A program made the translations under genes and the position numbers. From Candidatus Omnitrophota bacterium (GTDB lineage: Bacteria; Omnitrophota; Gorgyraeia; Gygaellales; Profunditerraquicolaceae), in assembly GCA_028715095.1 (NCBI GenBank), contig JAQUSM010000001.1, positions 1 to 38,262 on the forward strand: a stretch of DNA of 38,262 nucleotides. The letters run 5' to 3'. Of the stretch, positions 13,501-19,500 are shown in pieces; the stretch's first letter is position 1; each line of letters starts with the position of its first letter. The notes beneath the pieces were generated by a model. It made no database searches. It worked only from the letters and a program-made list of their open reading frames with translations, and was not told the DNA's origin.

Positions 13501-16500
13501 ATAAATACGGCATTTAAAAAGTTTACCGATAATGAAAAGTTGGATTTAGACAAAGAAGAAACATTTAACGGTTACAATATCACCAAAGGCATAGTATCCA
13601 AAGTATCTTCCAGCCCGTTATCCGGCGCGAAGGATATATCTTTCGCAGACGACGATACTCTCATTGGCGAATCAGATGAGCTTCCTAATAGTTTGTCGGT
13701 TGCATCTTCTACGGTTGATCAAAGCAAGGAAAACAACATTGATTTATCCAGAAGGAAAGGAATTATAATTTCTTTAGCTACGGTTTTGTCGTTGAAAATA
13801 CTAGGGCCATCGAAGGCTTTGGCGCAACTCTTGAATTCAGATGAAATGTTTTATTTGCACTTAGCGGGCAGTGATCCTAAAAAAACCGTATTAGACTTCA
13901 AAAAATATGAGGGCCAGACTTTTGCGAAAAATGTTTTAAAGGCGGCCATAAATAAAAATGCGGATGTGGTATTAGAGCATGCGGAGGTTTTTATTAATGA
14001 GACTTATGCGCAGGAACTATTTGAGCTCGCAACCCAAACCTGGCCACAATCTGTATTACGCCACGCATACCAGATTATTAAGCAGCCATACGCACAGAAG
14101 ATTATTGAAGCCGCGGCCAGTAAGTACCCGATGGGGGCCTTAGAATACTCCTTTAATTACGCAAAGCAGTCTTACGCTGAAGAAATAATTGCAGCCGCAG
14201 CCAAAAGTGAACCTGTTGCAGCGTTGAAATTCGCGAAAGCTTACATAGAAGAGCCATACGCGAAGGGCATACTCGAGGGAGCAGCTAAGAAAAACTACCT
14301 GGCTACTTTGGAATATTCCAAGAATTATTTTAACAAACAGTATATGCGGCCGATTATAGAGCAGTGTGTCAGAAGGAGCGCTTGGGGCGCTTTGAGATTT
14401 GCCTCCGGCTATTTGGATATGCCTGGCGCCAGGGCATTAATTGAAGGAGCGGCAGAATTAAGGCCGGATACGGCTATGCGTTATTCATTTGAGTATATGG
14501 CAGCGCCGTATGCAAAAGATATTATTATAAAGTCGGCGTTACAAGAGCCGGCGGCAGCAATAATAGAGACGAGAGGGGTTGGGTGGGTATTGGAAGAAAA
14601 GAGAAAAGATGTTCCGGAGATAGATATTATTTTAAGGATAGCAGCAAGTGAATATCGTGGTAAACAAGAAAGAATAGGGGCACTGCTTGATATGATTATG
14701 GATGATATTGGCAGCGGCATTGATGCAGACAGGGCAATGTATAAAGCAAGTAAGATAAGCGAAAATGACAATGAATTCTTTAAGGAGCTTATGAGGATAA
14801 AGTCCAAAAAGTCACCCAGGGGGGCAGCAAGCGTTGACCGGTTTTTAAAACGCCTATCTTTGATTTTGATAAGAGATATGAATGATATGCATGATTTAAC
14901 AGCGGAAAGAAGATTCAGAGCGTTGAACGATTATGACGCGGGTATGCTTTATACTATGATAGTTTACGGAGAAGACGAGGTTTATACATCTACCTTCAAC
15001 GGAATCTTTAATATACTCGTTAAAAAGATGAAAGAAAATAATATTTCCGGAGAAAAGTTATTAGAAATGGTCGGTAAAAATAAATTCCGGGTGTTTATAA
15101 AGCTAACCGCGGCATTTAAACGCCTGAATGAATTTTGGGATATTTTGGAGGTAAAGAGTAAAAAAGATGAGCTGATAAAAGAATTTGTCCAGGGTTTAGC
15201 CGGGATAAGAATTGACAACGAGCGATTATCCCAGACAATAGCGGTAGCGGATACGTTTAGCGTGATTAACGGCGGGTATCAACAGGTTATTTTACGCGAA
15301 GCAATCGATGAATATAAGAAAATGGAAACCGCAGGCAATAAAGAAGGAGTGAGGGTTTACGGGATTTTAATAGGTATTTTCGGCAGTCAGCTGTCCATAG
15401 AAGAGCCGTGGTTTCAGAAGATGTATCAGGATTATCCTGTTCCTGACTTAACGGCGATTGACGGGTCGCAGCTATTCGATCCTAACGGCGCGCAGGTTAA
15501 TACGCAGGTGCATTTCTTTTATAATGACCCTGACGGCAAGAATTCTTTTGATAATTTTAAAAAACTATTTAAGAAAAACGAAATTAAAGAATCCCCGGAC
15601 AAGAGTTTTATTGTTATCACAAAGCAAAGGGCGGACAAAAAAATCATAATATACGCCAATAATCCCTATACAGACGCTGTCAAGGGGCAGATGCAGGTTG
15701 ATAAGGCATTGAAAGAACGGGGAATAGAGCCTCAAGTAGTTGTGCATCGAGGACATAGTTTTCATCTTGGAGATACGATAGAAAGGATAACGGCTAAAGC
15801 CAAGATAGTTTTTCTGGGGGCGTGCGGTGGCTACAACTATATCGTTGATGTGCTGGAGAGGGCGCCATTAGCGCATATTGTTTCAACAAAAGGGACAGGT
15901 AAAAACGACGTTAACAACCCTCTCCTTGATATGTTAAATAATGAGCTTCTTTCGGGAAAAGGCATTCAGTGGGAGGGTTTTTGGCAAAAAGCAAAAAAGA
16001 GGCTGGGTGAATCCAAGGATTTTTCGGATTACGTGCCGCCGCACCGGAATCTGGGCGTATTATTTCTTAAGACATACTATAATGTCACGGAGAATGTTTC
16101 TAAAACAATACCGCATACGGGAAATCAAGGCTTTCTCCGGGAAATTATCGATAGCCTGACCCCGGAAGTAATTTTACCAATAACAGTATTCAATATGGCA
16201 ATCAATAAAATAACCGGCCGCGACCCAATGGACAGAAGGGAATTTCTGGGCTTAGGGAGGAAGACGGAGCAGCTAGGATCCGCTGACTCATCTCTTTCCA
16301 GAGAAGAAATCCAAATGAAGTGGGAGAATTTTATAAATACGGCATATTTTTATCATGGGACATCCTCTTTGTTTAAAAATAGCATCATTGAGAATGGTTT
16401 AGACGCTTCTTTAAAACCTTTTGATAGGAAAGAAATTCTGGACTTCTTTAATATATATTACAAAAAATTCTCCGGAATGAATGATTCACCGAAGAATGAA

Positions 16501-19500
16501 GGAAATATAGATAAGATTTTCTTAACAACTAACCAGAAAACAGCAGAAATTTACGCAGAGAATCCGCCAGAGGTAATAAATATACTACTAAGAGCATGTG
16601 GGGAAATGGAAGAAGCATATGAACAAAAAACCGAGGCTGGGAAAAAGCTAAACAGCGATGATTTAGAATTTATTAAAAATATGTTCGACAAATACAACCA
16701 TTATAAGGAAAACCACCGGCCTTTGGTTATGAAAATAAAGATTAAAGCGGCAATCGAGGCGGCATTGCGGTACAGACTATCAGTGTTAGGTGATGAGGAA
16801 TTAAAGAAATATGGGCTAGCTGATTCAGAGAGAAATCTGGGAGGGATTTTGGCTGCAAAGACTAAAGGTAAGCTTGCGCCGGAGCAATTGTTAAACATAG
16901 ATGGTTTGTTTTCCGCGTTAGATTTCGATGTTTTTATGGCTTACTCCCAAAATGTTAAAGGGATGTTTAAACAGAACTGGGATGATTTCTTGTCGCAAAC
17001 TTTTCCTCGTTTAATTTCCGGGCCCACAGATGAAATAGCTATACAGCAAGTTGCCTCAAAAGAAATAGAAGCGGTGGCTGGGTCTTCATTGCAAAATCCT
17101 CTACCCGCAGCCCCGGCATCCGCGTTACAGGGGGGCCAGGAAAATAAAAACGGAATGAATCGTAGGACGTTCTTAGGTATCCTTGGTCTTGGCGGGCTTG
17201 CTGTGCTTCTTGGCTTGTCTGATTCGGGTAACGCGGGAGAGCCGTTGCGGGAGGATGCCCAACCCGAAGAAGGCGTGCAAAAACAGGTCGACTGGGACAA
17301 GGCAAGAGGATTTATTGCTGATAAGCTTGCTGAGAAATACCCTGAGAAGAAGCAGGCCCAAGACATTAAGAATGTTTTCGGTGGATATGAAAAAGATAAA
17401 AGCAAGGCCTACCGGGAGATAAGTAAGCTGTTAAACAGCATGGCGAAAGAAATGGATAAGGAGCAGAGAATCGGCTCGAACAGCAACGGCTGGTTCACCA
17501 TGTATTTTATTTATATTGATGGTCTTTATGAAAATTTCGGGCAAAAAATCATCTTTCCTTTTGGCAAAAAATTCGCTTTCCTCGATTCAAGTAATAACCA
17601 AGGCACCCGGAAAATAATGGAGGACATGCTGGAGGAAGAGGCTTCTACCGCAAAGAAATGGCTGGGTAGAATCGGCGGTATTTTTGCGGCAGCAGGCACA
17701 GGAGCCCTTATATACAATAATATAATCAAGCCTTGGTTCGCCAGGAGGTTTGCGCGCGCGCTTAAGGAAGAGTTGGGGGCAATAAACAGTATTACTTTTA
17801 ATGACGACGGGTTCACGCTGCGTACCCGTTCCTCAAGAATTGAAATAGATTTTTCCGCTAAAAGCATAAAGATTTTCAGTACCAGCGGCGGCAAGGAGAA
17901 AATGGCGCATAAGCGGCAAGATTCCAGGCGATATTATGACTATTATGGCTTCAGTATTGAATCAGCCGCCTGGGATTATATTATTGCCGGGCAGGATAAA
18001 GAAATGCTGTTAAATTATATCCCGATTAAATTAAGGGACAATGAGTATTATGGGTATATGTCCACCAGGTTAAAAATGGAATCTTTGCTGAAAGGCATAG
18101 TCGCGACAATCAGGGATTTTAACGAATATAGTTTTCAGGATTTATTACGGATAGTGGAATTATTGGAAAAAGAAGAACGCGTTAGCCAGCAGGCTCTGGT
18201 TAGGTGGCTGATTGAGGCGAAGAAACGGGGGCAGGCTTTGCGTTCGGCGCTTGATAAGCTGCAGGATCTGCTGAAGTTACTCGATGGGCAGCCGCAGGAA
18301 GCGGTGGATGCGGGAATGAACCTGCTCATTACAAAGCCATACCTGGACACGCCCCATTTGCGCGTTTGGCTGGAAGATGCCGTATCCCGCGGGCAAGATA
18401 AAGCAAAACTTGTCAGCGACCTGAATGATTATTATTCCATAACAAGGGCGTTGTTAAGGTTAGGGGATTATGAGAATGAAACGGCGCAAACGATACATTT
18501 AATTTTAAGGGATAATCCTGAAATCAAGAGGCACAATTTGTTAAGTTGGCTTCGGGACGCCAAACAAGGCGGCAAAGACGGAAAAGAATTCTTATCGGGA
18601 TTGAAAAGGTTGGTTTTAATCAATAAAAGATTTATTGAAGACAGGGAAGCCCATTGGCCGCGTTCCGGCTACGCGGATGATTATAAACGGCTCGAAGATG
18701 TCCTTTTATCGCAAAGCGGGAAGCTGCTTTTGACATTAGGCGGCATATATGATGCCGGGTATCTTAATAGCCTGCTTCAGTTATATATAGGCGGGTATCT
18801 TTCGGCGTCATTGTGGGGGAAAGAGTACCAGCATTTTAAAGAAATAGAAAACATTCTTGAGGAAAACATTAATCTTATCGATGCCGCAAACTTGCTTGAA
18901 CTTAAGAAGAAGGAAATAAGCGGCAATAATAAGTTGGAGGCCTTAATTTTAGCCAAGGCTTCGGTCGATCCGTCATTTGTGGGTTCTATTGCGGAAAACA
19001 TAAAAAAGGAAACAAGTCCGCAAGTTAACAAAAATTTAATTAATTTGTTATTCAGCTTTGAAGGCGCGGAGGAAACTATACGCGATATATTAATGGGTAT
19101 TAATCCTGAAGACGCGGCTCAGAAGCATATAAGAAATGAATATAGCTGGCAATGGCAGCTGCTGGAAGAGTGGCCGGATAATGAAAAAAGTATAGCCAGG
19201 ATTATGAAAAAATACCCTGAATTACTCTCAAAAGTGCTCGCTATAGCCAAACCTTTGGTGCCATCTTATAAAGGTAATCCGCCATACTACAAAAGGCATT
19301 TTCCGCTTATTATATCCGCCGCGTTAAGCAATATACGGGAATTGAGCGTGTCTGCGGATGAATTCAGGGATTTATTAGAAATGCTCAATAATTGGCAGTG
19401 TCGTCCGGATTGTTTAAAGGCGATAAGCTATGCTGTGTTAAACAACCCCGCTCTTTATCAGGAGTTACTCGCGGAAGAAAATATTTTTGACGCTGAGTAT

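Follow-up and report, generated by a model that had tools for sequence, protein, structure and literature searches.

Giant proteins encoded by Omnitrophota have been reported in two recent studies (West-Roberts et al. 2023, bioRxiv 10.1101/2023.11.21.568195; Nielsen and Lui 2026, bioRxiv 10.64898/2026.06.07.730766). The gene considered here lies in a stretch of 38,262 nucleotides from Candidatus Omnitrophota bacterium (contig JAQUSM010000001.1, positions 1 to 38,262), hereafter termed the window. It occupies an open reading frame (ORF) at 7408..27915 of the plus strand, with a likely ATG at 7480 (7480..27915; 6,811 amino acids, aa), and it contains, deep inside the chain, four segments (i to iv) that resemble export signals. 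Residue numbers count from the start of the open frame at 7408 unless stated otherwise (e.g., 2141 at 13828 and Met3250 at 17155), and all features are on the plus strand unless marked. Within the passages available from the two studies, the reported giants resemble this protein: they are of great length and multi-domain, for the most part lack annotation, and have a signal peptide, transmembrane helices and many enzyme-type domains. Processing has been proposed for them. The Archaeovorin/dockerin-type giants of West-Roberts et al. are given in those passages as over 10-30 thousand residues, as against 6.8 thousand here, and none of their marks (SecA_DEAD, SecA pre-protein-binding, C39, S8 and dockerin/discoidin domains) was found in this protein with Pfam/NCBIfam at E <= 0.1. 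The carrier family, linker motif and signal-keeping cassettes set out below are not described in the passages of both papers that were searched.

Dual Sec-Tat membrane proteins, for which both the Sec and the twin-arginine translocation (Tat) pathways are named, are known to have twin-arginine motifs at internal positions (PMC3471235, PMC5449189). In these proteins, the Tat-dependent span comes last, after an even number of Sec-inserted spans, and is followed by positive charges and a cofactor-binding globular domain (PMC3471235, PMC5449189). Segment iii shares with them a consensus RR motif that is internal and stands directly before a weakly hydrophobic span oriented with its N-terminus inside (N-in). 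However, segment iii is not the final span, as segment iv follows it and then ~3,400 more residues; the 15 residues after segment iii are acidic (one K/R versus four D/E); and the loop that comes next (aa 3277-3421) has neither Cys nor His and no cofactor-binding domain.

Two other known systems offer partial parallels. Tail-anchored Tat substrates, such as the hydrogenase small subunits, consist of an N-terminal Tat signal, an exported cofactor domain and a C-terminal span with a cytoplasmic tail of a few residues. Their order of Tat-type signal, exported domain and membrane span recurs here as segment iii, loop and segment iv, whereas in those substrates the signal is N-terminal, a cofactor is bound, and the tail has a few residues rather than ~3,400. 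MARTX-type autoprocessing toxins are long secreted chains of unrelated enzyme cassettes, in which short linkers serve as processing sites. They match a polyprotein reading of the giant protein in that several enzyme cassettes are split by short linkers in one long chain; unlike them, the protein showed no RTX repeats and no C80 cysteine protease domain in Pfam/NCBIfam and Foldseek searches.

The giant ORF is probably best explained as a hyper-expanded member of an Omnitrophota carrier family, with some cassettes being whole pre-protein genes captured together with their export signals. The carrier plan would comprise a conserved signal and N-domain, variable cargo cassettes joined by linkers, and a conserved C-domain, and some cassettes would have entered it as entire pre-protein genes. 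Segment i would then be the Sec signal peptide of a captured secreted protein, segment ii the now functionless remnant of a Tat-type N-terminus, and segment iii a still-intact Tat-type signal, presumably from another captured N-terminus. Today, segments iii and iv may serve as a signal-anchor and a stop-transfer span that together form a membrane hairpin, and segment i is probably too weakly hydrophobic, and too interrupted by Lys, for a dependable internal span.

Segment i and its cassette

Segment i (SRRKGIIISLATVLSLKILGPSKALAQ) lies at 13747-13827. All four segments had been pointed out by an initial annotation made from the letters alone, and all are present within a few bases of where it placed them (13741-13830 in the case of segment i). 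The layout of segment i is that of a Sec-type signal peptide, with a basic n-region (RRK), a hydrophobic h-region (core GIIISLATVLSLKILG) and an A-x-A-type c-region (SKALA-Q), and the segment is the third most hydrophobic 15-mer of the protein. It is not N-terminal, as it stands at residue 2,090 counted from ATG 7480, and there is no in-frame Met near it.

The cassette that begins with segment i (aa 2114-2895, ~780 residues) has a body, delimited by homology, of helical repeats followed by an alpha/beta domain with VVVHRGHS...LGACGGY (aa 2141-2895; 13828..16092). BLASTP matched it to P0138 (9e-92), P0139 (1e-84) and P0140 (4e-35), with alignments that stop at the C-termini of the homologues. 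From end to end, the cassette is collinear with P0139 (755 aa) and P0140 (745 aa), both of which are separate genes on their contigs and begin with Sec-type signal peptides, that of P0140 ending in ALA-Q like segment i. The module was also found in 37 metagenome loci, in 21 of which the frame was long enough to judge the N-terminus. Fifteen of these 21 have a frame of their own (693-1,061 aa, mostly 700-850 aa) whose N-terminus carries a hydrophobic signal, and this signal precedes the matched domain by 369-725 aa. For 12 of the 15, the distance from signal to domain is 397-474 aa, and segment i lies ~490 aa before the equivalent point. None of these metagenome loci has the module inside a giant ORF. 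Separate-gene homologues with the counterpart of segment i at their N-termini, which the initial annotation had proposed to look for, are thus present among both the proteins and the metagenome frames.

Because segment i stands at the position of the homologues' N-terminal signal, it is taken to be the retained signal of a captured protein. That it is the still-attached Sec signal peptide of a captured secreted protein is, by sequence comparison, essentially shown. Signal-like stretches occur deep in the giant gene because at least one cassette, that of segment i, is a whole secreted protein that has kept its own export signal.

Within the alpha/beta domain, a caspase-like protease was considered at VVVHRGHS...LGACGGY but found no support: the AlphaFold2 model has a predicted local distance difference test score (pLDDT) of only 70, and the Foldseek matches are generic GTPase/Rossmann-like folds with template modelling scores (TM-scores) of 0.3-0.45. 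Two of three free-standing homologues of the cassette adjoin contractile-injection-system genes, one next to a phage-type sheath gene and a gp19 tube gene (locus L002, 1-2132) and the other next to a gp25 baseplate gene and a lytic transglycosylase gene (locus L004, 2481-3900).

The carrier family

Read from ATG 7480, the giant protein begins with MKIKTIRSFKIIAIILSFLLIFEQSGFAQ (7480..7566), a Sec-type signal with seven K/R on its N-terminal side and none on its C-terminal side. A box in this signal, ..F[EQ]Q[ST]GFAQ, is kept family-wide, and the signal form ..LLCFxLIFEQSGFAQ is strikingly conserved. The signal is followed by a conserved N-domain of ~350 aa (aa 54-430; 7567..8697), delimited by its homologues and by an AlphaFold2 model (pLDDT 83; predicted template modelling score, pTM, 0.80). 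The first ~400 residues of the protein match 341 proteins, almost all of them labelled Omnitrophota/Omnitrophica, with a best E-value of 9e-210. For the N-domain, there was no PDB fold match at E < 0.1 and no Pfam or NCBIfam match; an NheA-type toxin fold appeared among weak top matches and was disregarded, with TM-scores near 0.1. At the other end of the protein, an SSSPV linker and then GGIDMR lead into the conserved C-domain of the family (27493..27912), which was delimited by alignment with family C-termini. This domain has ~130 aa after GGID[FLM]R, and the last ~140 residues of the giant protein align with the C-termini of P0043, P0056, P0060, P0075, P0115 and others.

The cargo between the two domains ranges from zero to thousands of residues in the family and amounts to ~6,270 residues in the giant protein. 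In the short family members (~600 aa), the N- and C-domains nearly adjoin and there is no cargo, and in other members the cargo consists of HEAT repeats, phosphoglycerate kinase, GAPDH, phosphoglucomutase or HD domains. Many linkers also occur in a further member, P0002 (3,629 aa), whose N-domain is related (33% identity, E = 4e-50). All marks of the family are found in the giant protein, namely the signal box, the N-domain, linkers of the form [AGS][GS]S[SAP][LIVM] and the GGID[FLM]R C-domain. On these sequence features, the giant ORF is an extreme, hyper-expanded member of an Omnitrophota N-domain/C-domain carrier family. The family is apparently undescribed so far; literature searches on the motifs GGIDF, FEQSGFAQ and ASSPV returned nothing relevant.

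Downstream of segment iv, the cargo includes enzyme-type cassettes at 21586..25518, where Pfam/NCBIfam searches point to a HAD phosphatase, a weak CRP-like similarity, an HD domain and a GT9-like glycosyltransferase; Pfam cut-offs are passed only by the HD and Hydrolase_3 matches. HExxH motifs occur twice in the giant protein, in ILHEVGHG at ~9150-9200 (aa ~590) and in ILHELTHV at ~26560-26600 (aa ~6390), and similar ones stand directly after the N-domain in other family members, e.g., P0018. These stretches may be metalloprotease modules.

Linkers, cassette borders and the orthologue

A scan of one genome per species recovered only one relative of the giant gene, at a single locus (L001) in the Omnitrophota metagenome-assembled genome JBAZUE010000002.1. 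This orthologue (3116..25291, 7,391 aa) is flanked by the same genes, and 6,246 aligned residues give 78% identity between the two proteins. The ratio of nonsynonymous to synonymous substitution rates (dN/dS) between them is 0.25 overall and 0.10-0.44 by module, compared with 0.02-0.15 in the flanking housekeeping genes. With these values, the entire giant frame can be taken as coding and constrained, though loosely. The synonymous rate itself (dS) runs from ~0.10 (aa 4991-6100) up to 1.43 (aa 3801-4400), the flanking genes having 0.28-0.69, and this mosaic along the gene suggests recombination between lineages.

The linker [AGS][GS]S[SAP][LIVM], often followed by Q or E, stands at cassette borders, and in the giant gene its 15-nucleotide (nt) motif starts at 10108, 13606, 13702, 17077, 22399, 23986, 24640, 26890 and 27493. 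The family set has 82 copies versus 7.4 +/- 2.6 in shuffles, an 11-fold excess. A linker is found at every cassette border seen, and in short family members these include the borders where the N-domain ends and the C-domain begins. Since codons differ between copies, it is the peptide and not the DNA of the linker that is conserved, and for the same reason a role as a DNA recombination site was ruled out. The linker might serve for processing or as a flexible joint.

The blocks shared by the window and L001 begin and end within a few residues of linkers, and the starts before segments i and iii lie at the motif or at most three residues from it. At the left border of cassette i, the collinear block begins exactly at the linker VASSTV (13699..13716; AGSSV in L001). 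The block with segments iii and iv has the linker AGSSL (17077..17091) at its left border; it comprises residues 3753-7391 of L001 and 3221-6835 of the window and begins at EVMAGSSL / EAVAGSSL, three residues before AGSSL. Each of the two genes also has material that the other lacks. In L001, ~985 residues within 5723-11770 (aa 870-2885) have no counterpart in the window. A 255-aa cassette with an FYHGTS domain (aa 2966-3220; 16303..17067), which falls between segment ii and segment iii, is found only in the window. Its homologues (P0002-P0017) are either small free proteins or parts of other very long ones (P0002, P0006 and P0011). The start of the cassette matches PARP catalytic and RNA 2'-phosphotransferase models weakly (E ~0.05), which suggests an ADP-ribosyltransferase-like fold; a PDB sequence search with the cassette gave no match. 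Upstream of segment i, L001 holds a second copy (64% identical) of the cassette at window aa 4123-4710, so that one cassette type is found on both sides of the putative membrane spans.

Segment ii

Between the end of the cassette-i homology and the Met of segment ii lies a 45-aa spacer (16093..16227) to which the homologues do not extend. For aa 2901-2965, dN/dS is 0.32 versus 0.13 in the cassette i body. The spacer may once have been intergenic and have come to be translated. The homologues end 45 residues before MDRREFLGLGRK, a layout resembling one gene's old stop codon, then a spacer, then the beginning of the next gene, all read through in frame.

Segment ii (MDRREFLGLGRK, 16228..16263) has a Tat-type n-region with an in-frame Met at 16228 and no hydrophobic core. 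Its DRREFLGLGRK, which the initial annotation had placed at 16221-16262 and described as an RRxFLG motif lacking a core, is located at 16231-16263, and the sequence bears out the description. At most six residues after segment ii, the linker variant SADSSL (16279..16296) follows, and the 255-aa insert begins two residues later. There was no match of segment ii to Tat models. We infer that it is a decayed Tat-type N-terminus in which the Met, the twin arginines and FLG have been kept and the core has been lost. A recent duplication relating segments ii and iii was rejected, as only 15 of 36 nucleotides are common to them, no more than the shared codons require.

Segment iii and internal Tat-type signals

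Segment iii (MNRRTFLGILGLGGLAVLLGLSDSGNA) lies on an in-frame ATG at 17155-17235, exactly as first described, 27 residues after the AGSSL linker. It reads M-NRRTFLG followed by a Gly-rich hydrophobic core and SGNA. With N-R-R-T-F-L-G in the window and D-R-R-T-F-L-G in L001, it was counted as matching the Tat consensus (S/T-R-R-x-F-L-K). The h- and c-regions also fit the Tat type, in that a weakly hydrophobic, Gly-rich core (ILGLGGLAVLLGL) precedes S-G-N-A. Between the window and L001, RRTFLG and LLGLSDSGNA are invariant, and the core varies while staying hydrophobic. Tat-signal models are the only families matched when the segment is scanned alone, with 13.9 bits for TIGR01409 (cut-off 16.7) and 16.6 bits for PF10518 (cut-off 22.7); the L001 segment scores 15.6 and 15.2 bits, respectively. 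The initial label of a textbook Tat-type signal suits the motif, core and c-region, but not the scores, which stay under the curated cut-offs, nor the position, which is residue 3,226 from ATG 7480 and not the N-terminus of the protein.

The RR.FLG motif occurs twice in the giant protein, in segments ii and iii, and both copies stand directly behind an in-frame Met. Among 20,000 composition-preserving shuffles, one copy appeared in 115 and two copies in none. A looser Tat-like pattern (RR, a permissive residue class and 13 uncharged residues) was present in 14% of shuffles, so only the strict RR.FLG consensus is informative. When all 15-mers of the protein are ranked on the Hessa scale, the N-terminal signal and segments iii, i and iv take the four most hydrophobic places, and the identical set leads in L001, which has retained every one of segments i to iv. 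The pattern exceeds chance, and the initial annotation had singled out the true outliers.

Family members P0027, P0051 and P0052 likewise have an internal RRxF motif and hydrophobic stretch behind a linker, and the internal Tat signal of P0027 passes both curated cut-offs (28.0 and 25.6 bits). In P0027 (501 aa, on an ENA contig), a Sec-type signal and the N-domain come first, and an ASSAI linker leads on to GISRRGFLKAAGVAAAALALDNTGVAEA (residues ~385-415, with the Tat signal from ~387); a gene of 866+ aa begins 30 nt past its stop codon. Judging from these members, internal Tat-type signals are a recurring trait of the carrier family and not a one-off. No tatA or tatC was found in the 38 kb window or in 35 kb of the relative, and literature searches linking Omnitrophota with twin-arginine/Tat export found nothing relevant.

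The initial suggestion that the gene is a fusion of at least three formerly separate exported proteins holds directly for segment i, through its collinear, free-standing, signal-bearing homologues; for segments ii and iii, we infer a captured-gene origin. An antisense ORF of 154 aa (16941-17405, minus strand) overlaps segment iii and is probably spurious, because the plus-strand frame there is under purifying selection.

Segment iv and membrane topology

Segment iii is the most hydrophobic 19-mer of the giant protein, with a Hessa sum of +2.7. A Lys/Glu-rich loop of 145 aa (17236..17670), which has no Cys and no His, connects it to segment iv; the loop is 77% identical in L001, with a dN/dS of 0.15. 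Segment iv (IGGIFAAAGTGALIY, followed by KPWFARRFARALK) is a hydrophobic helix (19-residue Hessa sum +4.8) at 17671-17715, with a tail to 17727, close to the ~17665-17720 first given. It is only 32% identical in L001, with its hydrophobicity kept, and such fast change at constant hydrophobicity would be as in lipid-facing helices.

Lys and Arg number three before and one after segment iii, and three before and five after segment iv. The charges of the N-terminal signal and of segments i and iii thus give an N-in/C-out orientation, and those of segment iv a C-in orientation. Given N-in/C-out and then C-in, segments iii and iv make a sensible hairpin around the 145-residue loop, and they most likely form a two-helix membrane hairpin with segment iv as the predicted return span. 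Paired hydrophobic helices are also found in family members P0020, P0028, P0114 and P0130. The idea that the segments act as membrane anchors accordingly fits segments iii and iv by the positive-inside rule, but not segment i, whose charges are oriented like those of a signal peptide. With a Lys within its core and a 19-mer Hessa sum of +6.7, segment i is doubtful as an internal membrane span.

Several points weigh against the explanation of the giant ORF as a carrier with captured pre-proteins and a hairpin. Conservation in a single, 78%-identical orthologue says little about selection, and neither Tat model scores segment iii above its curated cut-off. Beyond L001, no homologue of what follows segment iii turned up in a word-indexed search of 5.8 billion proteins or in a full HMMER scan of 1.84 billion representatives. 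A metagenome scan seeded on this part gave no match either. These negatives weigh on the captured-gene origin of segments ii and iii. The Hessa sums, which are a crude measure, are positive for all segments. Moreover, an exported N-domain would put everything up to segment iii outside and the arginines of segment iii on the wrong side; from the basic residues before segment i, the initial annotation had likewise seen no fit to a simple topology after a cleaved N-terminal signal. Because of the conflict at segment iii, either the orientation of the hairpin or the fate of the N-terminal part departs from the simple model. The same conflict is seen in P0027, where a Sec-type signal and the N-domain are followed by the Tat signal with no span between. 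Finally, P0002 has only an N-terminal signal and yet contains enzyme-type domains, so the enzyme domains downstream of segment iv are no proof of a cytoplasmic location.

Alternative explanations

The alternative that survives best is a polyprotein, in which cuts at the [AGS][GS]S[SAP][LIVM] linkers would release every cassette as a protein of its own. After cutting, segment i (15 residues past its linker) and segment iii (27 residues) would lie near new N-termini and act as real Sec and Tat signals, and cassettes without signals would stay put. Such cutting would remove the topology conflict, both here and in P0027, and the internal signals are all oriented as N-terminal signals, with K/R on the N-terminal side. 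The 11-fold enriched linker, which is conserved as a peptide with varied codons and stands at every border seen, also suits this explanation, as does the presence of HExxH motifs in the giant protein, and cleavage of giant Omnitrophota proteins has been proposed before, in the passages available from one study (bioRxiv 10.1101/2023.11.21.568195). However, no protease that recognises the linker was found, the His/Cys domain of cassette i having only generic alpha/beta fold matches, and a flexible Ser-rich joint would account for the same conservation. Furthermore, the cutting would have to be cytoplasmic, whereas the first module is Sec-targeted. Overall, a polyprotein is a minor possibility. 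A bolder form of it, a secretome in one gene whose linkers are processing sites and whose cassettes are swapped between lineages at the linkers, is slightly more doubtful; so, to the same degree, is its corollary that each cassette would come with a destination tag of its own, Sec-type for segment i, Tat-type for segment iii (and in P0027) or a hydrophobic hairpin, or else with no tag.

It is improbable that the segments are ordinary hydrophobic helices of a membrane-associated Omnitrophota giant that resemble signals by coincidence. Membrane-spanning helices or a signal peptide are predicted for 94% of long Omnitrophota proteins, according to the passages available from another study (bioRxiv 10.64898/2026.06.07.730766). 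Segment iii scoring under the Tat model cut-offs and the frequency of the loose Tat-like pattern in shuffles would agree with coincidence. For segment i, however, coincidence is contradicted by its place at the homologues' N-terminal signal peptide position, and it also has to contend with the pair of strict RR.FLG motifs that no shuffle reproduced, the in-frame Met before each of them, and the internal Tat signal of P0027 above the cut-offs.

Translation from ATG 17155 as a separate 3,586-aa protein with an N-terminal Tat signal has in its favour that the Met is in frame and conserved in L001. The upstream sequence (CCAGGAAAATAAAAACGGA) is A-rich, like the window's real starts without a Shine-Dalgarno motif (e.g., pyrC at 29642, behind GCAAGGGAAATAAAAAC), and the codons before 17155 (CAG GAA AAT AAA AAC GGA) resemble the A-rich leaders of the window's genes. 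The AGGAAAA that had been reported 10-17 nt upstream of the ATG is indeed present, at 17138-17144. A separate protein of this kind is nevertheless very improbable and its Tat export unlikely, with no support for the ~3,590-aa Tat-exported product first suggested, as the AGGA is 13 nt from the ATG, a spacing too wide for a Shine-Dalgarno site, Shine-Dalgarno-like motifs are better placed at 11 of the ORF's 132 in-frame ATGs, nothing promoter-like precedes 17155, segment iv would stop transfer so that only 145 residues could cross the membrane, and those residues have no Cys or His for a cofactor. To our knowledge, a cargo of ~400 kDa would also be far above any Tat substrate. Internal promoters or terminators showed no excess over shuffles in 13400-17800 and no site just before the ATG. 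Synonymous-site identity upstream of the ATG (0.88-0.94 versus a gene mean of 0.76 +/- 0.15) is unremarkable at ~1 standard deviation, and as a sign of an overlapping start signal it was discarded, the range of dS from 0.10 to 1.43 swamping any local signal. Most gene starts in the window (e.g., 29642, 30934, 32381 and 35905) have A-rich leaders and no well-placed Shine-Dalgarno motif, and the giant gene's own start at 7480 has no such motif.

Genomic setting

The giant ORF is located on the chromosome. The gene order in the window is gyrB, a small ORF, gyrA, glmS, a methylase gene, the giant ORF, pyrR, pyrB, pyrC and further pyrimidine genes. The small ORF between gyrB and gyrA (1363-2199) encodes 278 aa, with a sub-threshold match to DUF7847.

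Implications

The giant genes of Omnitrophota are a recognised puzzle, both in whether their products remain a single chain or are cut and in how these come to lie in or across the membrane. The puzzle becomes more tractable at this locus, where cassette borders are sharp, the linker is maintained at the peptide level, and at least one cassette is an entire pre-protein that has kept its signal. For those who annotate such genes, signal-peptide and transmembrane predictions run on giant proteins in chunks will catch inherited signals that may no longer be functional. If the secretome-in-one-gene form of the polyprotein explanation were true, one ORF would supply proteins to several compartments or to a prey cell. 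Through this locus, the processing of giant Omnitrophota proteins and the role of their internal hydrophobic stretches become experimentally approachable.

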